A DNA stretch of 64,000 nt. Source: a phage. The stretch lies in NCBI GenBank assembly GCA_017686895.1, contig GCA_017686895.1_4521.1. One strand, given 5' to 3'. The stretch's first letter is position 1. The number at the start of each line of letters is the position of its first letter. The notes below the pieces were generated by a model. The model had not been told where the DNA came from and made no database searches. It saw nothing but the letters and a program-made list of their open reading frames with translations. Both the position numbers and the translations under genes were made by a program. This document shows positions 13,837 through 57,450 of this stretch, one piece after another.

Positions 13837-13866
13837 GTTTACATCTTCCTCTAGGCATGATATGAT
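13837..13866 (+). promoter_or_regulatory. Early-type promoter GTTTAC-N18-TATGAT
   Basis: Spacer contains TTCCTCT, complementary to the downstream SD AGAGGAA (13883-13889). Confidence 0.5.
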
Positions 13867-13895
13867 GTACTTACACAAACCAAGAGGAAAACATT

Positions 13896-14270
13896 ATGAA
13901 TATGTCTCAAGCAATTTTTACTGCAATCACCGAAAACACAACTGTTGAAGTAGTTTCTCCGCTGGCAACCTACGTTATTCTTGCTCCTAAAACTATTGTA
14001 TCTCGTATGGAAAACACAGGCAAACGTATCGTACAAATAGTTGGAGCTGGAAATCAAAAACTTGATTATCTACGAACCATCAAAGCTTACGAACATTTCC
14101 AACTCGAAAAAGGTTCTCCTATCCAGGTAGAACTCGTAAATGGTGATATCGTTCGAGCAATGTTCCATCATTTCTATGCATTGAATGACCCATCTAAAGC
14201 GGTTCGTTTAATTGCATATGACGCAAACCAAAACGAAATCAACGCAGATATATCTAAATTACATTTTTAA
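13896..14270 (+). CDS. Hypothetical protein
   Basis: 124-aa ORF with SD AGAGGAA. Confidence 0.5.
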   Translation: MNMSQAIFTAITENTTVEVVSPLATYVILAPKTIVSRMENTGKRIVQIVGAGNQKLDYLRTIKAYEHFQLEKGSPIQVELVNGDIVRAMFHHFYALNDPSKAVRLIAYDANQNEINADISKLHF

Positions 14271-14299
14271 GTTTACTTCTCCAGTAGTTGTGTTATTAT
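14271..14299 (+). promoter_or_regulatory. Early-type promoter GTTTAC-N17-TATTAT embedded in a 12-bp inverted repeat
   Basis: Arms CTCCAGTAGTTG (14279-14290) and CAACTACTGGAG (14308-14319) flank the -10; the downstream arm contains the SD. Confidence 0.55.
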
Positions 14300-14325
14300 A
14301 GACCTATCAACTACTGGAGAACAAA

Positions 14326-14643
14326 ATGAAAACCATCGATTGTAAAGCAGAATTTAAGATTTTTTATCACGGTTCAAGTAGTTCAGCTAACATCGAAAAC
14401 ATGCTTTGTCCTCCTGAAGAAACAGGAGTTCTGTCTGAAACTGGACGTAAGAAAAACTTGGATCGTGTATTCTTTACTGAAGATATCGGTTTAGCAAAGA
14501 TTTATGCAGGACGAGCAGCACGCTCTTATGGAGGTGAACCACGTCTCTATCGAGTAATTTCTCCGGTAGATGTAGTTCAAATGAATGATACTAAAGGCGC
14601 TACAGTTTATCACGCTGAATGGGCATTTTGCGAGGAAATATGA
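14326..14643 (+). CDS. Hypothetical protein
   Basis: 105-aa ORF. Confidence 0.5.
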   Translation: MKTIDCKAEFKIFYHGSSSSANIENMLCPPEETGVLSETGRKKNLDRVFFTEDIGLAKIYAGRAARSYGGEPRLYRVISPVDVVQMNDTKGATVYHAEWAFCEEI

Positions 14644-15047: not shown

Positions 15048-15077
15048 GTTTACAAGCACCACATACTGTGTTACTAT
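15048..15077 (+). promoter_or_regulatory. Early-type promoter GTTTAC-N18-TACTAT
   Basis: Followed by the CTATCAACTAC element shared with the 14300 promoter. Confidence 0.4.
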
Positions 15078-15105
15078 CTTTCTATCAACTACAGAGGAAA
15101 TTGAA

Positions 15106-15474
15106 ATGAAAAAATTAATCGCTTTAGCAATGGTATTTGGATTAACCGGATGTGGTGCCCATGGCTTTATCCCTAATAACGTCGGCCAATTGATTTACAA
15201 TCCGAATGTTAAACAGTACGACCAACCTAAAGTTGAAGTGGAAGACCCGGTTACTGTAGGTAATCGAATGATTCAAGCTGATGCCCATGCTCAACGTTAT
15301 CGTGACTCTGATACCGTAGCATTGTCAAAAGAACAACGCGTTAAAGAACATTGTCTACAGGCTACTGAAATCGCATTCATTCGCTATGTTGAAACAACTG
15401 GTAAAGAGCCTACCCAGAAACAAATCGCGAATAACTACGTCCAGTGTATTGAACGTTTAAACAAATTTAATTAA
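15106..15474 (+). CDS. Putative lipoprotein
   Basis: Signal peptide with lipobox LTGC (MKKLIALAMVFGLTGCG). Confidence 0.6.
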   Translation: MKKLIALAMVFGLTGCGAHGFIPNNVGQLIYNPNVKQYDQPKVEVEDPVTVGNRMIQADAHAQRYRDSDTVALSKEQRVKEHCLQATEIAFIRYVETTGKEPTQKQIANNYVQCIERLNKFN

Positions 15475-21139: not shown

Positions 21140-21168
21140 GTTTACATTCCCTCCTCTCGTGTTATGAT
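21140..21168 (+). promoter_or_regulatory. Early-type promoter GTTTAC-N17-TATGAT
   Basis: The G of GTTTAC is the last base of the upstream TAG stop; spacer CCTCC is complementary to downstream SD GGAGG. Confidence 0.5.
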
Positions 21169-21195
21169 AGGCTTATCTTTAAATGGAGGTCTATC

Positions 21196-21777
21196 ATGAC
21201 ATGTCAATCTGAACTTCAAGAACGCGAATATCTCGCAGCACTAATTGATGATAAATTCACTAAACAAGAACAAAACATTCTCTGGGCTTGCACTGATTAT
21301 AAGGAAGACCCGGATTTCCACTATGAATTAGACCATCTTGTTCGTAAGCATATGACTTCTACAGTACCAGTAGAACTCTACCGTGGTGTAACTCCAGAAG
21401 AAGTAGAACGTCTTTCCCTTCTTTCTGTTGGATGTCATTGGTCTCCCGGACGAGTAACATCGTTTACAACAGACTTTGGTACGGCCAGACAGTTCTCTGG
21501 GAGTTGGGAATATCAAACGTACACTATTCTTAGTCTCAGGAATGCTCCGTTCATTTTCGATTACTACCAAAACATGGTTAACATTGTACTCGCCGGAAAG
21601 AACCCTAAGCATGTTATGGAAGAAAAACGTGTTGACGTCCTAGATATGATTGAATCTGAACAAGAATACATGGTCTCAGGTATCTCTAGATTTGAGATTG
21701 TAGAAATTGAAGACTTAGAATATGACCCTTTATCTCGGTTATACAAAATCATTCATTTGAAAATGTTGAATTTTTAG
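21196..21777 (+). CDS. modB: ADP-ribosyltransferase, ModB-like
   Basis: R-S-E ART motifs: LYRG, SFTTDF, ESEQEYMV; T4 order modB-modA in this direction. Confidence 0.6.
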   Translation: MTCQSELQEREYLAALIDDKFTKQEQNILWACTDYKEDPDFHYELDHLVRKHMTSTVPVELYRGVTPEEVERLSLLSVGCHWSPGRVTSFTTDFGTARQFSGSWEYQTYTILSLRNAPFIFDYYQNMVNIVLAGKNPKHVMEEKRVDVLDMIESEQEYMVSGISRFEIVEIEDLEYDPLSRLYKIIHLKMLNF

Positions 21778-25718: not shown

Positions 25719-26213
25719 ATGAATATCAATACTACGGCTACTTACATCCTGAAAGATGAAAAACAAATCAACTGGTACGGTGCTTCAGTGCGAGCTTATG
25801 AAAAGTTTTGTGAAATTTTAGGTGCCACTCAAGGTAATAGTTTCACTATTGTTAACTTCATCAAACAAGTTGAAGGCCCTTGGTTATTCTTAGAAATTAA
25901 AAATTCATATGGTACAATTTCTACCACCGCCCTTCCAAGCACCGACTTTGAACTGTTGATTGAAGAAGTAGAACCCGTTAAAGATATCTGTATTGATATG
26001 GATATCGCTTGTATGTACGGTACTCTGATTAAGCCTATTGAGCCTACTGATTTGTTGTGTAAATATGTTTCAATTCGACGCCCATTCGCTGGTCCAGTAA
26101 ATGGATGGGTGACTGATCAGTGGATTGAAGACGGTGTTGAACTTCTGAACGTTGTTCATGCAGGTGATTTTAGTGTAGTTCCACGTAGTGCTGTGGTTAA
26201 TATCCTTAATTAA
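25719..26213 (+). CDS. Hypothetical protein, paralog family member 1
   Basis: Shares C-terminal motif W(I/V)EDG..L.N(I/V)V..GDF.VV with the next two genes. Confidence 0.5.
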   Translation: MNINTTATYILKDEKQINWYGASVRAYEKFCEILGATQGNSFTIVNFIKQVEGPWLFLEIKNSYGTISTTALPSTDFELLIEEVEPVKDICIDMDIACMYGTLIKPIEPTDLLCKYVSIRRPFAGPVNGWVTDQWIEDGVELLNVVHAGDFSVVPRSAVVNILN

Positions 26214-26214
26214 T

Positions 26215-26245
26215 GTTGTACATCCAAGGACGGGTGGAGTATAAT
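26215..26245 (+). promoter_or_regulatory. Promoter-like element GTTGTA...TATAAT (duplicate of the 25659 element)
   Basis: CAAGGACGGGTGGAGTATAAT nearly identical to the upstream copy. Confidence 0.4.
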
Positions 26246-26274
26246 GAATTCAACTTAAACAAAGAGAGAAAATT

Positions 26275-26760
26275 ATGAATCTTGGTATTATTGGTGAAAT
26301 CGTTCGCGTATCTAACAAATCTCGTTCTAAAGCAGCAGGAAAATTGGTCGAAGTTGTAAGTATTCAACTTAAAGAAGGCGTTAAAGATGAAGATTCTGAG
26401 GTAAAAGTTCGTATTATTCCTAGTCTTGGGTCGAGGGAAACTCAGTTCGCTTATGTTCGTGCAAAGTTCTTGGAAACTCCTGCGAGTAGTGCTTTTGCTT
26501 CAAGAGAAAAAGTTGAATCCACAGAGCCTAATGTACAGTTCAAATGGGCCTTGTGTAAAGGTGTTGAATTCCAGACTGATAAAGAATTTGACTTCATCGA
26601 TGAATATGGTTATCCAAGCACAACTGATACCATGTGTGGCTTCATTAGTGACCAATGGGTAGAAGATGGTGAAAAGTTATACAATATCGTATTCTTAGGT
26701 GACTTCCGAGTTGTTAAAGAATCCGAAATCACTCGCTATGTGTCTCCTCGTAAAGCTTAA
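26275..26760 (+). CDS. Hypothetical protein, paralog family member 2
   Basis: N-terminal SRSKAAGKLVEV and C-terminal ISDQWVEDGEKLYNIVFLGDFRVV shared with 26770-27189. Confidence 0.55.
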   Translation: MNLGIIGEIVRVSNKSRSKAAGKLVEVVSIQLKEGVKDEDSEVKVRIIPSLGSRETQFAYVRAKFLETPASSAFASREKVESTEPNVQFKWALCKGVEFQTDKEFDFIDEYGYPSTTDTMCGFISDQWVEDGEKLYNIVFLGDFRVVKESEITRYVSPRKA

Positions 26761-26769
26761 GGAATTATT

Positions 26770-27189
26770 ATGAATATTGTAAATCTCTCTACAGGTGATT
26801 ACGTATATGTATCTGTTGCTTCTCGCTCTAAAGTTGCCGGGAAGTTGGTTGAAGTTCTTTCTGTGAGTGATCCGGTTTTTGGTCGTAACCAAGTTAAAGT
26901 TCGTGATGCTAATGGTAATATTGGCTACGTCTCAAGCCAGTTCATTGAGCCAGAAGAAAAAGCGTTCAAATGGGGACTATGCAGATCAGTTTCTGTTGAA
27001 AAAGACCATGAATTCACTATTGCTGCGGCAACTGATGGAACGCCATGGAAAACTAAGCAAATCGCCGGATTTATTAGCGACCGTTGGGTAGAAGATGGTG
27101 TTAAGCTTTATAACATCGTTTTCGCTGGTCAGTTCATGGTAGTTCCTGAATTCCAAATTAAAAAATATAGCCCAGCTGCTTTCGCATAA
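26770..27189 (+). CDS. Hypothetical protein, paralog family member 3
   Basis: SRSKVAGKLVEV...ISDRWVEDGVKLYNIVFAGQFMVV. Confidence 0.55.
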   Translation: MNIVNLSTGDYVYVSVASRSKVAGKLVEVLSVSDPVFGRNQVKVRDANGNIGYVSSQFIEPEEKAFKWGLCRSVSVEKDHEFTIAAATDGTPWKTKQIAGFISDRWVEDGVKLYNIVFAGQFMVVPEFQIKKYSPAAFA

Positions 27190-27193
27190 AGTT

Positions 27194-27222
27194 GTTTACT
27201 TCTCCTCTGGTTTTGATATTAT
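27194..27222 (+). promoter_or_regulatory. Early-type promoter GTTTAC-N17-TATTAT embedded in an 11-bp inverted repeat
   Basis: Arms CTCCTCTGGTT (27202-27212) and AACCAGAGGAG (27232-27242); downstream arm is the SD of the 27249 gene. Confidence 0.55.
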
Positions 27223-27248
27223 AACCATATCAACCAGAGGAGAATAAT

Positions 27249-27773
27249 ATGTTAGTTTACCGCGTAGAACGTAGTTTTTGCACTCAACGTGAATCATTAC
27301 CAGGAATTGCTATCGAAGACGGTAAAGCCGTCAGAATTTGGGAAACCTCTTGGAATAAAGAACCTCGTTCGCCATACGGTTGGTCGGGCACCGACAACTC
27401 TGAAGAAACATGGGAGTTCCTTGATAAGCATGGAATACTCTCAGGTAACTTCTACCATCACGGCGACAACTATAATGTCCCTAATCGTCCTACAGTAAAT
27501 GAAGACAAACTTCTTGAACAAAATATCTTAAGATACCATAGAATTGAGTACACATTTGAATTGAGTGAAGATTGGGCTCAAGGGTTCTATTTTGGATTTG
27601 AAAGCGTTGACGCGGTTTATGCATGGTTTGATGACCAGGTGGATGTTGAACTCTTGAAAGCTAAAGGATACTACATCGCGGTCTATGAAGCACCTGATTT
27701 CATCCTCGGAAGTTGTCAATTAATGTTTAGACGTTCATTGGCAGAACAAGTTGATTTTATTTTGCTAAAATGA
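27249..27773 (+). CDS. Hypothetical protein
   Basis: 174-aa ORF. Confidence 0.5.
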   Translation: MLVYRVERSFCTQRESLPGIAIEDGKAVRIWETSWNKEPRSPYGWSGTDNSEETWEFLDKHGILSGNFYHHGDNYNVPNRPTVNEDKLLEQNILRYHRIEYTFELSEDWAQGFYFGFESVDAVYAWFDDQVDVELLKAKGYYIAVYEAPDFILGSCQLMFRRSLAEQVDFILLK

Positions 27774-27830
27774 TGTACAACAACTATGGTCTATGATACT
27801 ATAGACCTATCAAAACAAGAGGAGAATATT

Positions 27831-28058
27831 ATGAAACGTCAAATCATTAAAAACGTAACTACTGATTCAAACATCGATGAGTTTGAAGATGTTCTGTTTA
27901 ATCCTGATTTAGTTGTTGTACAGAAAAACTGGACCAGATTTTTATGCTACACCGAAGTGGTTTACGTTTACGAAAAACTCGGCGATGAAATGCCTATCTA
28001 CGGTATCTTCCGTGAAATCACTGAAAACGGTACAACTTATTGGAAGGAAACTTACTAA
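27831..28058 (+). CDS. Hypothetical protein
   Basis: 75 aa from ATG 27831 (SD GAGGAGA). Confidence 0.45.
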
Positions 28059-28468
28059 TGGCTAATAAATTCCGCGTTAACTCGTGGTACCAATTTAAAG
28101 ATAAACGTGCCCAAGAAGAGTTTATTAAAAACCACACTGATAATGGGATTTATGCACGACGTCTTGGCATGGAACCATTTAAAGTATTAGATGTTGACCA
28201 TCTTGGTCGTCCTACTAAAATTGTGACATCTACTGGCACGGTTGGATACGCAACAGGCGGTGATATCCTTGATGAAAACTTTATCTGGCTCTCCACGAAT
28301 GAAGCAGAATTCTTTGACGAAGTTGGAAATCCGTATCAAGCGTCCGAAGAGCAAGATTCTGGTGAACTTGACGAATTGTCTGAATTTCCGGTGATGACAA
28401 TTACTATCGAAAATAACGACCAGGCATGGTCTTTGTATCAAATGTTGAAAGCACATTTTAAGGAATAA
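28058..28468 (+). CDS. Hypothetical protein
   Basis: 136 aa from ATG 28058 (TAATG coupling). Confidence 0.5.
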
Positions 28469-28470
28469 TA

Positions 28471-28650
28471 ATGCCGTTATACGACTATAAATGCCAATCT
28501 GAAGATTGCGGACATGAATATGAAAAAATTAAAAGGATTTCTGAACGAGAAAACGATGTTTGCCCTGAATGTCATCGTCTGTCTACTCGTCGGGTTTCTG
28601 CTCCTAAACATGTGAACGGTGGTTTTTACGACTTACTTAAGAAGGGTTAA
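28471..28650 (+). CDS. FmdB-type zinc-ribbon small protein (59 aa), not in ORF track
   Basis: MPLYDYKCQSEDCGHEYE...CPECH: CxxC...CxxC with the FmdB-like N-terminus; SD AAGGAA. Confidence 0.5.
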   Translation: MPLYDYKCQSEDCGHEYEKIKRISERENDVCPECHRLSTRRVSAPKHVNGGFYDLLKKG

Positions 28651-28652
28651 TT

Positions 28653-29078
28653 ATGGCTTTTAAAGGTTTTGAAGTTGGTAAGAAATATCGTATTATCAAA
28701 GGTCAAGAAGATAATTTCTTGAGAATTCTTAATACGACCGGTAAACGTCTTAATACTAATCTGCATACTACTTTATTGTCCAAAGATTTTATTGTGGAAG
28801 AGATGATTGGTTACGGTGTTTCGGTTATTGCTGTAGAAGCCGTAGGCGATTATGGTCGAACTATTCATAGTATGCAAGGTGATATTCTGCTTTATGGTGC
28901 AGAATTTAAATTCTTTGAAGAAGTTCCGGAACCAGATACATCTGTCGATTTCAAAAAAGGCTCTATAGAATTTGTTGATGGATCGGTGATCGTATCAGGC
29001 GATGTGGTCATTACAGTTAAAAGTGAACAAGGGCGTTTGGCTGTAATTGATGCACTTCAGAAAATTAAATTTAAATAA
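28653..29078 (+). CDS. Hypothetical protein
   Basis: 141-aa ORF. Confidence 0.5.
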   Translation: MAFKGFEVGKKYRIIKGQEDNFLRILNTTGKRLNTNLHTTLLSKDFIVEEMIGYGVSVIAVEAVGDYGRTIHSMQGDILLYGAEFKFFEEVPEPDTSVDFKKGSIEFVDGSVIVSGDVVITVKSEQGRLAVIDALQKIKFK

Positions 29079-29095
29079 GGGCTTCGGCCCTTTTT
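29078..29095 (+). terminator. Rho-independent terminator (AGGGC-TTCG-GCCCT plus TTTTT)
   Basis: Overlaps the stop codon of the upstream gene. Confidence 0.6.
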
Positions 29096-29119
29096 GCTTT
29101 AGATTTCGGATGATAGAAT
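29093..29119 (+). promoter_or_regulatory. Candidate middle promoter for gene 39 (MotA box TTTGCTTTA plus TAGAAT)
   Basis: Box matches the MotA consensus; 12 bp to the -10. Confidence 0.45.
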
Positions 29120-29141
29120 ACCTTCATAACGAGGAGACAAC

Positions 29142-32102: not shown

Positions 32103-32194
32103 ATCCTGAATAGCCTGAGGCACTATTACACATAAGATGATAGATTATATGGTCTTTAGTAATAGTGCCCTAGGAATCTACTGAAGAGAATATT

Positions 32195-39492: not shown

Positions 39493-39521
39493 GTTTACAT
39501 GTGCTTCAAACGTGATATTAT
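39493..39521 (+). promoter_or_regulatory. Early-type promoter GTTTAC-N17-TATTAT with TGCTTCA in the spacer
   Basis: Followed by AGACCTATCAAAAC; near-duplicate of the promoter at 39814. Confidence 0.55.
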
Positions 39522-39560
39522 AGACCTATCAAAACAAAACAACCAAATTGGAGAAATAAA

Positions 39561-39776
39561 ATGTCTAAAATGAAATTAACCCAAAACACAACTACTCGTT
39601 TCGGTAAAGTCAAACCCGGTATGAATGCTCTCCGTAAAGCACTTGTTGAAGAATTAAATTTCTTAGAAGTTGAAATCAATTCTTTAGTGGTTCGCGGTTC
39701 AAATGGACATCATTTAGAAAAGCTTCGTTCTAAAAAGGCAAAACTTATTAGCCTTATTAAAGAAATGAGTTTGTAA
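39561..39776 (+). CDS. Hypothetical protein
   Basis: 71-aa ORF; N-terminus similar to the motA N-terminus (MSK..., shared leader TTGGAGAAATAAAATGTCTAAA). Confidence 0.45.
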   Translation: MSKMKLTQNTTTRFGKVKPGMNALRKALVEELNFLEVEINSLVVRGSNGHHLEKLRSKKAKLISLIKEMSL

Positions 39777-39813: not shown

Positions 39814-39842
39814 GTTTACTTTTGCTTCAAACATGATATTAT
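39814..39842 (+). promoter_or_regulatory. Early-type promoter GTTTAC-N17-TATTAT for motA
   Basis: Spacer contains TTTGCTTCA; followed by AGACCTATCAAAC. Confidence 0.55.
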
Positions 39843-39878
39843 AGACCTATCAAACAAATACTAATTTGGAGAAATAAA

Positions 39879-40511
39879 ATGTCTAAAGTTACTTACATCA
39901 TCAAAGCTTCTGAAAACGCTCTGAATGAAAAAACTGCTGCAATAATGGTTTATATCATTAAGAACAACTTCACCACTGCTGCCAATGTCCGTGAAGCTCT
40001 GAAAGCGGAATACAATGCATCGGTTGTTAACTCTAACATTGGTGTATTGATTAAAAAAGGTTTAGTCGAAAAATCCGGTGATGGACTTGTGGCAACCGGC
40101 GAAGCAATGGATATTATCCAAAAAGCTGCAGACCTATTTGCTCAAGAAAATGCTCCAGAACTTCTCCAGAAACGTAACACCAGAAAAGCACGTGGAGTTA
40201 CTCCTGAAATGCATGAACTAGCGAACTTTGTTTTTGAAAATATTAAAGATAAAGTTGAAGTTAAAGAAATTGGTGAAAACCGTAGTAACTTAGAAGTTCG
40301 ATTCGCTAAACGAGTTCTAGGCATTCGCCAAATTGAAATTCGACGAGATGGCGCTCTTAGAATCTTTGCATACAACATGTCAGAAACTGAATCAAAGCTG
40401 TTTACTTCTCTTGAAAATGATGTTAAGATTAAAATCGGTGGTAAATATACTTACATTGACTTCCCTAATGTGTCCAAAGAAATCATTACCCTTGTAACTA
40501 ACGTACTGTGA
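39879..40511 (+). CDS. motA: Middle-transcription activator MotA
   Basis: 210 aa; MSKVTYIIKAS...NSNIGVLIKKGLVEKSGDGL matches recalled T4 MotA. Confidence 0.85.
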   Translation: MSKVTYIIKASENALNEKTAAIMVYIIKNNFTTAANVREALKAEYNASVVNSNIGVLIKKGLVEKSGDGLVATGEAMDIIQKAADLFAQENAPELLQKRNTRKARGVTPEMHELANFVFENIKDKVEVKEIGENRSNLEVRFAKRVLGIRQIEIRRDGALRIFAYNMSETESKLFTSLENDVKIKIGGKYTYIDFPNVSKEIITLVTNVL

Positions 40512-57207: not shown

Positions 57208-57450
57208 ATGATTTTTGTATTTGAATTTATGAATGACGAATTCGATTATGCAATTTTTAACGCATTGCATAATCCCGATTTAAGTGAATTTAATGAAATG
57301 TTTTCTGACGCTTTGAGTATGTCAGAAGAATACTGTGGAGAATGTCAACGTGTTTGTGTGACAGTTTTTGAAAACAAAGAAAAGACATATGAAGAGTTAT
57401 TCTTTGACGCTAATAAAGCCACTGAATGGTTTATTGAAAAGGGGTTTTGA
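57208..57450 (+). CDS. Hypothetical protein
   Basis: 80 aa from ATG 57208 (SD GAGGAA). Confidence 0.4.
   Translation: MIFVFEFMNDEFDYAIFNALHNPDLSEFNEMFSDALSMSEEYCGECQRVCVTVFENKEKTYEELFFDANKATEWFIEKGF

Follow-up and report, generated by a model that had tools for sequence, protein, structure and literature searches.

The Shine-Dalgarno (SD) sequence and/or the AUG of the T4 genes e, soc, 49 and I-TevI (also of I-TevII/III, segB and Aeh1 mobE) is buried on long transcripts initiated upstream; for e, soc, 49 and I-TevI a late promoter lies inside the hairpin, and the RNAs started from it, which do not include the 5′ arm, undergo translation (PMC3014915, PMC2988022). According to a review, the genes regulated by such a promoter-in-hairpin 'are all late genes' (PMC2988022). 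The promoter-early stem-loop (PeSL) cassettes of Arbiol et al. 2010 and Comeau et al. 2014 form the second related system, in which an early promoter, a stable stem-loop, an SD and an ATG are repeated as an intergenic unit that is abundant in plastic early-gene regions and located at the breakpoints of indels and replacements (PMC2839356, PMC4122927). The published PeSL stems lie in the upstream AT-rich region, over the −35, between the boxes, over the −10 or just before the start (PMC2839356), and have been interpreted as terminators and recombination sites (PMC2839356, PMC4122927). Here we analyse positions 27194-27251 of a 64,000-nucleotide (nt) stretch of phage DNA (the window), a cassette between a MotB-like gene and a homologue of motB.2. 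According to sequence comparison and folding predictions, the element is a real, conserved sense-RNA hairpin around an early promoter of T4 type, and this hairpin is predicted to mask the SD of motB.2 on read-through transcripts. We give a probability of roughly 0.58 to promoter-selective translation, i.e. to the reading that an early promoter built into an SD-masking hairpin makes the translation of motB.2 depend on the promoter from which the RNA was started.

The T4-type early promoter consensus consists of GTTTAC, about 17 nt and TAnnnT (PMC1524935, PMC4122927), and the 27194 site appears from its sequence to match it as a sigma-70 early promoter, with GTTTAC, a 16-18 nt spacer and a TGn-extended TAnnnT −10 (Table 1). 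A sigma-70 scan also calls this promoter, as TTTACT, 16 nt and TATTAT with the TG extension. The late promoter TATAAATA is not present at the motB.2 site, where the promoter is of the early type, and the Rfam 15 covariance models gave 0 matches at E ≤1 against 26000-28500. The stretch aaccatatc stands between the −10 and the 3′ arm, and taat separates the 3′ arm from the ATG at 27249-27251. Placed from the −10 spacing alone, the predicted start falls between both arms, 3 nt ahead of the 3′ arm, a key feature that was absent from the original prediction for this locus. Transcripts crossing the end of the MotB-like gene include the 5′ arm, whereas RNA from the embedded promoter would lack the anti-SD arm because its start lies between the arms; it is likewise predicted to start within the structure, without the 5′ arm, in the orthologues of five genera. 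In read-through RNA of 120-200 nt, the SD (27237-27243) has a mean predicted probability of being unpaired, P(unpaired), of 0.003-0.008, and in a 138-nt read-through context the value is 0.0002. For RNA started at 27227-27231 with 50 nt of coding sequence included it is 0.32-0.44, and for the own-promoter leader alone 0.87. The models thus place the SD in base pairs in transcripts from upstream promoters, and the claim of the original prediction that the repeat masks the SD of the gene starting at 27249 is borne out in predicted RNA structure.

In the mechanism that we propose, RNA from upstream early promoters (e.g. 25660 and 26217) would run through the MotB-like genes, carry both arms and fold into a stem of about 18 bp in which the SD is buried. 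RNA from the embedded promoter would begin near 27229 with an open leader of about 20 nt, and synthesis of the motB.2 protein would be confined to the activity of its own early promoter, as an immediate-early burst insulated from delayed-early or middle read-through. As a secondary effect, the 525 nt of untranslated motB.2 on read-through RNA would likely be exposed to Rho-dependent polarity or nucleases, both of which have been discussed for T4 delayed-early RNA (PMC2988021), and the hairpin would then also set the end of the upstream transcription unit, with no classical terminator involved. Three points are inferred here: the site of the start, the block of translation and its biological purpose. 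A strict pattern search for a MotA-box middle or late promoter that could feed the read-through found none between 15 kb and 27.2 kb, the sole match (29093) being downstream. Also downstream, GGGCTTCGGCCC at 29077-29120 forms a hairpin with T-runs on both strands that resembles a bidirectional terminator. The next gene is preceded by a MotA-box-like middle promoter (TTTGCTTTA...TAGAAT) that comes directly after this hairpin. As the main mechanism, translational coupling to the upstream stop was considered and rejected: by footprint geometry, no more than the first 1-3 bp of the stem would come within reach of a ribosome that terminates at 27187-27189.

Table 1. Features of the motB.2 element and its surroundings, related elements of the window, and hairpin arms at the motB.2 site of other phages
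Feature	Position	Strand	Remarks
MotB-like gene, upstream, co-oriented	26770-27189	+	PF17613 (motB) by Pfam/PHROGs
TAA stop of MotB-like gene	27187-27189	+	4 nt before −35, agtt between
−35, GTTTAC	27194-27199	+	T4-type early promoter consensus (PMC1524935, PMC4122927)
5′ arm (anti-SD), TTCTCCTCTGGTT	27200-27212	+	promoter spacer, upstream of predicted start; in read-through RNA only
Extended −10, tTGaTATTAT	TGn 27214-27216, TATTAT 27217-27222	+	within hairpin loop and inner helix
Predicted transcription start	27229	+	A of conserved tATCAAC motif, 7 nt past −10 (spacing rule PMC1524935)
3′ arm, AACCAGAGGAGAA	27232-27244	+	holds SD GAGGAG, 27237-27242
motB.2 homologue, putative regulated gene	27249-27773	+	174 amino acids; phrog_1106, family of unknown function
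Sister element	14271-14328	+	GTTTAC; arms 14277-14290 and 14308-14321 (14 nt, perfect); SD GGAG in 3′ arm; TATTAT; ATG 14326
Weaker element of like design	13837-13898	+	spacer CTTCCTCT pairs with AGAGGAAA; SD P(unpaired) 0.25 on read-through
Arms, Mosigvirus			TTCTCCTCTGGTT / AACCAGAGGAGAA
Arms, ESCO47 and ECCR664			TTCTCCTCTAG / CTAGAGGAGAA; G27209:C27235 to A:T, compensatory
Arms, Dhakavirus			TTCTCCTCATG / CATGAGGAGAA; CATG/CATG
Arms, Tequatrovirus, T4 included			UCCUCGGU·AGUUGUGGU / ACCAUAGCU·ACUGAGGA; three G·U pairs
Arms, Kanagawavirus and Pectobacterium phage PM2			5′ arm is the −10 and next few bases (ATGATGACCTC); pairs with GGAGGTCATCAT(G), AUG included

The inverted repeat had been described as 11 nt, perfect, around TATTAT, which is correct but understated as the perfect complement between the two arms extends over 13 nt. 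The RNA fold of 27185-27265 has an energy of −24.9 kcal/mol (z = −5.6), and 0 of 200 shuffles were equally stable. With loops of 3-40 nt and arms of 11 nt or more, 4 perfect inverted repeats are present in the 64 kb, where 0.86 would be expected. Just two of the window have arms of at least 13 nt, namely the present one and that of the sister element, and both occupy an equivalent place in an early-promoter cassette; any 13-nt perfect inverted repeat was found in 6 of 100 dinucleotide-shuffled windows. The likeness of layout to the 14271 element that had been pointed out also holds, with GTTTAC, a spacer arm, TATTAT and the SD in the 3′ arm in both. Other perfect 11-nt inverted repeats, GGCACTATTAC/GTAATAGTGCC and GATTATGCAAT/ATTGCATAATC, lie at 32119-32169 and 57244-57274. 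A second helix of 5-6 bp (27214-27219 with 27227-27232) lengthens the outer stem of the 27194 hairpin. We rejected it as a functional part and take it as incidental because the 13-cassette alignment described below gives no covariation for it and its bases are partly those of the −10 and of the conserved tATC start motif.

About 20 cassettes made of GTTTAC/TGTACA, a spacer, a −10, the (c)tATCAA start motif, an SD and an ATG were found on the + strand of the window, each 20-50 nt ahead of the SD and ATG and in the same orientation as the open reading frame (ORF; n=20). For a test of specificity, we paired every spacer in turn with the leader transcribed from its own cassette and with those of the 19 others. 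The non-cognate spacer:leader duplexes had a mean of −5.9, a first percentile of −14.7 and a minimum of −21.9 kcal/mol, and the cognate duplexes of cassettes 14272 (−22.9 kcal/mol) and 27195 (−22.5 kcal/mol) are both stronger than every non-cognate pairing. The cognate duplex of the 13838 cassette reaches −13.0 kcal/mol and the remaining cassettes stay within the null. On read-through RNA, P(unpaired) of the SD is about 0.000 for 14272 and 27195, 0.05 for 21141, 0.2-0.25 for 56441 and 13838, and 0.3-0.9 for the remaining cassettes. From the duplex and SD-accessibility results it follows that SD masking is a specific subset of a general early promoter and stem-loop habit. The same figures bear on the reading that a pyrimidine-rich spacer merely happens to complement a purine-rich SD. 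Its strength is that the 8 nt TTCTCCTC/GAGGAGAA would pair with any strong SD, and that the chimeric cassette of phage F2 still forms 9 bp in this way alone. Yet the parts of the arms outside the SD co-vary (TGGTT/AACCA, TAG/CTA, ATG/CAT, TAGTTG/CAACTA, TTTTCT/AGAAAA), and the shuffle and cross-pair nulls fail to reproduce the observed pairing; this compositional reading is disfavoured and hardly credible. Two other cassettes of the window may be mentioned here. At 21140-21200 the SD and ATG (GGAGGTCTATCATG) pair with the −10 region (TATGATAGGC), the layout seen in the Kanagawavirus motB.2 cassettes. The leader TATCAACTACAGAGGAAA at 15048-15110 is like the 3′ arm of the 14271 cassette and its spacer holds no complement; this cassette may have arisen from the SD-masking design by recombination or decay.

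Escherichia phage vB-Eco-KMB38 matches the region 26700-27900 at 99.6% identity, and more than 120 further records do so at 95% or above, with Mosigvirus (RB69-like, T4-type) coliphages among those sampled, and by this sequence match the window is a Mosigvirus (RB69-like), T4-like coliphage genome. In an annotated relative, in which the ORFs 26770-27189 and 27249-27773 are a MotB-like gene and the motB.2 homologue, the gene order is dda, dexA, motB-type genes, motB.2, cef, goF and 39, and for MotB.2 itself Pfam/PHROGs returned phrog_1106 alone. Among Mosigvirus genomes the 58-nt cassette is unchanged in 71 records and has 1-2 base differences in 70; of six records compared at 88-98% identity, three are altered in the loop or TGn alone. 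Roughly 680 genomes were found to contain motB.2. We gathered 48 motB.2 upstream regions (29 distinct) from GenBank phages, IMG/VR and metagenomes, covering Mosigvirus, Dhakavirus, Tequatrovirus (T4 included), Kanagawavirus and Mosugukvirus. The SD-masking hairpin is kept in all five genera while the arms differ between them, those of T4, Kanagawavirus and PM2 being wholly different from the Mosigvirus arms, and in every motB.2 class the predicted start comes after the 5′ arm. For 26 of the 29 distinct sequences P(unpaired) of the SD on read-through RNA is ≤0.024, as against 0.45-0.95 for the predicted own transcript. Two of the three exceptions, loci L157 (0.50) and L166 (0.19), are real, and the third (L169) is a registration artefact of the extraction. 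A T4-type cassette was also seen in phage ERS-1 (L138, about 320-420, record marked UNVERIFIED), where a changed 3′ arm still pairs at −19.4 kcal/mol and a truncated motB.2 reading frame comes next.

Covariation was measured on an alignment of 13 Mosigvirus- and Dhakavirus-type cassettes, four of them paralogous (the 14271 sister, L049, the F2 chimera and L055). Scanning IMG/VR with the 14-mer GTTTACTTCTCCTC gave 129 matches in 120 stretches, about 20 of which are real phage cassettes and the rest chance matches in unrelated contigs. In the outer helix, 5 of 13 pairs changed on both sides, a count that leans towards structure because the cassettes were chosen by eye, most of them known to pair, and the poorly pairing L049 at 3543 and L114 (also L055 at 5799) were left out. 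The cells of the alignment are paired in 88.7% as compared with 38-50% in slid registers, and the covariation score is 0.182 against 0.045 in the shuffles (reached by 0 of 500) and ≤0.048 in slid registers. Compensatory changes, which the original prediction had proposed to look for at the orthologous site, are present, the clearest cases being the A:T pair of ECCR664 and ESCO47 and the CATG/CATG arms of Dhakavirus; ECCR664 also has A27232G, which yields a G·U pair. These changes support an apparent selection on structure.

The further part of that earlier claim, structure 'rather than duplication', is too strong. The 14271 and 27194 cassettes have GTTTAC-TTCTCC...TATTAT..TATCAAC...GGAGAAC/T in common, and since such cassettes share sequence and recombine, the two elements are paralogous and not independent inventions. 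RB68-type and T4-type phages match our query only up to 27194, ESCO47 only from 27195 onward, and the Dhakaviruses only over 27186-27268, their cassette lying after dexA. In phage F2 (L005, 1625-1684) and Mosigvirus phi25-307 (L230) motB.2 is missing and a chimeric cassette is present instead, its 5′ half from the motB.2 cassette and its 3′ half from the cef cassette (27774-27836 in the window), with the crossover between spacer and −10; this looks like a deletion by recombination between two flanking promoter cassettes. The window also has near-identical early-promoter cassettes at 39494-39565 and 39815-39883, 321 nt apart on either side of a 71-amino-acid ORF, and tandem cassettes of this arrangement are tied to mini-circle excision in the PeSL papers. 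In T4 (L129) and RB68 (L007), upstream of a small ORF before cef, the hairpin ATCAGTAGTTGAT/ATCAACTACTGAT flanks the −10 and stops short of the SD; it has CAGTAGTTG and TATCAACTACTG in common with the 14271 cassette of the window, so that arm sequences are common to unrelated loci and genera.

Such breakpoints, at or in the cassette, would suit an element acting on the DNA level, e.g. a protein operator, a cruciform or a homology patch for cassette recombination, for which RNA folding is irrelevant; a palindromic operator would likewise show paired changes in both halves. Recombination, however, requires shared sequence and not self-complementarity, and the arm positions move between genera while the masking of the SD is kept. 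The stems of T4-type phages, PM2 and L142 rely on G·U pairs, which makes the antisense strand or DNA palindrome 5-12 kcal/mol worse. The sense and antisense folds are −23.7 and −14.0 kcal/mol in T4, −17.8 and −8.0 in PM2, −21.1 and −8.8 in L151, and −18.5 and −13.6 in L142, whereas the strands of perfect Watson-Crick versions differ by just about 1 kcal/mol. Natural variants in which G·U becomes A-U (L155) and G-C becomes G·U (L151) are also consistent with RNA pairing. The strand bias and the variants favour a sense-RNA structure over a DNA palindrome or operator, and we consider the DNA-level explanation very improbable. By the same evidence the promoter-sequestering role originally assigned to the repeat is not upheld, since it is the loop of an RNA hairpin that holds the −10 and the G·U pairs indicate sense RNA, not DNA. 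What this analysis shows is the sequence, its match to the promoter, the masking in thermodynamic terms, conservation together with covariation, and specificity for one strand.

Several observations weigh against promoter-selective translation. The start site is a prediction from spacing, and the predicted own transcript that includes 50 nt of coding sequence is not fully open. Two Mosigvirus substitutions are uncompensated: mogra and PTE-Eco05 have T27208C, a mid-stem C·A mismatch that costs 4.7 kcal/mol, and at the loop end O157 typing phage 6 has T27211A. In L166, a T4-like locus, a G to T change gives a U·U mismatch and partly frees the SD, and L157, a 30%-identical orthologue, masks it weakly. 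The original prediction had named non-compensatory arm substitutions as the outcome that would speak against it, and they do occur, to a mild degree: both Mosigvirus variants leave the SD masked (P(unpaired) ≤0.0006), L166 less so. Among the orthologues of the sister gene 14326 (50 loci), strong SD masking is limited to Mosigvirus, and beyond it just 5-7 bp pairings exist in some genera; the sister element is therefore weaker support than motB.2. Also, most early cassettes in the window have their hairpins elsewhere, either flanking the −10 with the SD untouched (15790, 27774, 36413, 36925 and 37186; e.g. GGACTAT/ATAGTCC around TATAGT) or inside the spacer (25660 and 26217), and because of this a general hairpin function unrelated to the SD could exist. 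PeSL stem-loops moreover lower a downstream lacZ reporter like a terminator, comparable to rrnB T1 (PMC2839356).

The last two points lead to a PeSL-type attenuator or 3′-end hairpin, where the stem-loop would stop, pause or stabilise the MotB-like transcripts and its overlap with the SD would be a mere consequence of the 59-nt intergenic space. It would agree with the many window cassettes whose hairpins do not touch the SD, and one GenBank record annotates the motB.2 hairpin as a rho-independent terminator (TransTermHP, WebGeSTer). The stem is, however, followed by AAUAAUAUGUUAG, with 3 U in the first 8 nt, and the 27194 hairpin was not listed by our terminator scan. The post-stem sequence is A-rich, without a U-tract, in the orthologues of all five genera. 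Intrinsic termination is unlikely, given the tail AAUAAUAU, its A-rich character throughout the genera and the fact that the terminator-like list does not include the site. An attenuator would also leave unexplained why in every genus the 3′ arm takes in the SD (in Kanagawavirus and PM2 the AUG too), whereas the place of the 5′ arm shifts. On balance we hold this explanation to be unlikely, although of the alternatives it deserves the most weight.

Less probable still is a nuclease shield, in which the hairpin would hide GGAG from RegB or AU-rich sites from RNase E on long transcripts, such that cef, goF and 39 stay on intact polycistronic mRNA while the short early transcript can still be cleaved. 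RegB cuts GGAG/U in the intergenic SD regions of early mRNAs, and secondary structure blocks it (PMC3014915). The masked motif is GAGGAG here and GAGGAU in T4. A cassette of like design was found in Salmonella phage STP4-a (Gelderlandvirus; L231, 61-121), with TTTCTCCTCT/AGAGGAGAAA pairing over 10 bp at −30 kcal/mol in context, upstream of a gene annotated as endoribonuclease. We take this gene to be regB, whose product cuts GGAG in SD sequences. Against the shield, the argument is purely inferential and many other early cassettes of the window leave GGAG or GAGG exposed. Shielding from RegB would be compatible with promoter-selective translation, as the two are not exclusive.

Taking promoter-selective translation further, we propose, tentatively and at somewhat less than even odds, a Tevenvirinae class of promoter-embedded translational insulators. 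In a subset of immediate-early genes, the anti-SD would be placed within the gene's own early promoter, by which protein synthesis would be locked to the brief activity of this promoter; read-through RNA would go untranslated and perhaps set the ends of transcription units by polarity. The members proposed are motB.2 in at least five genera including T4, the gene at 14326, and the endoribonuclease-annotated gene of Gelderlandvirus. The early genes of T4 stand in dense arrays rich in promoters and poor in terminators, and it is understood only in part how individual early proteins are confined to the first minutes. Reviews list hairpins masking the ribosome binding site for late genes only, and a counterpart with an early promoter would contribute a simple rule acting in cis, by which translation is reserved for RNA begun at the embedded promoter; this rule would separate immediate-early from delayed-early expression. 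If true, the apparent 'terminator' effects of PeSL stem-loops could be explained. For annotation it is a warning against labelling such hairpins as rho-independent terminators, and for synthetic biology it offers a compact 58-nt insulator design. T4 itself offers a direct test case in the strong early promoter that immediately precedes motB.2. With a map position near 8.2 kb, this promoter is probably P8.1.

Compared with the known systems, the 27194 element is like a PeSL in that it joins an early promoter, a stable stem-loop, an SD and an ATG in a unit repeated in the genome, and in that it coincides with insertion, deletion and replacement breakpoints. It differs in having its 5′ arm between the boxes and its 3′ arm at the SD beyond the start, a layout not listed in PMC2839356; neither a stem with one arm on either side of the −10 and the start that reaches to the SD nor a translational role is described in PMC2839356 or PMC4122927. 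With intrinsic terminators it shares a stable G+C-containing intergenic stem-loop, but no orthologous version has a U-tract, the loop holds the −10 and the 3′ arm holds the SD. A mechanistic parallel is found in IS10/Tn10, where fold-back inhibition reportedly protects transposase from external promoters (Davis, Simons and Kleckner 1985). External read-through RNA of IS10 holds a segment upstream of the own start that pairs with the ribosome binding site, and RNA from the own promoter lacks this segment. This is an analogy of mechanism only, the element and sequence being unrelated; its purpose in IS10 is the silencing of transposase, whereas here a phage early gene in a dense operon-like array is concerned. 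No early-promoter version of ribosome-binding-site masking was found in the literature searched, the coverage of which is incomplete and gives no proof of novelty. The likeness to T4 e, soc, 49 and I-TevI lies in the SD masked on long RNA and the internal-promoter RNA without the 5′ arm, both of which are predicted here. Those genes have the late promoter, in contrast to the sigma-70 early promoter with the 5′ arm in its −35/−10 spacer in our case, and the timing would be inverted, with translation only in the immediate-early burst. Since the embedded promoter is early, one defining trait of the T4 late-gene family is lacking, and the element would work like that family without being a member of it as described.

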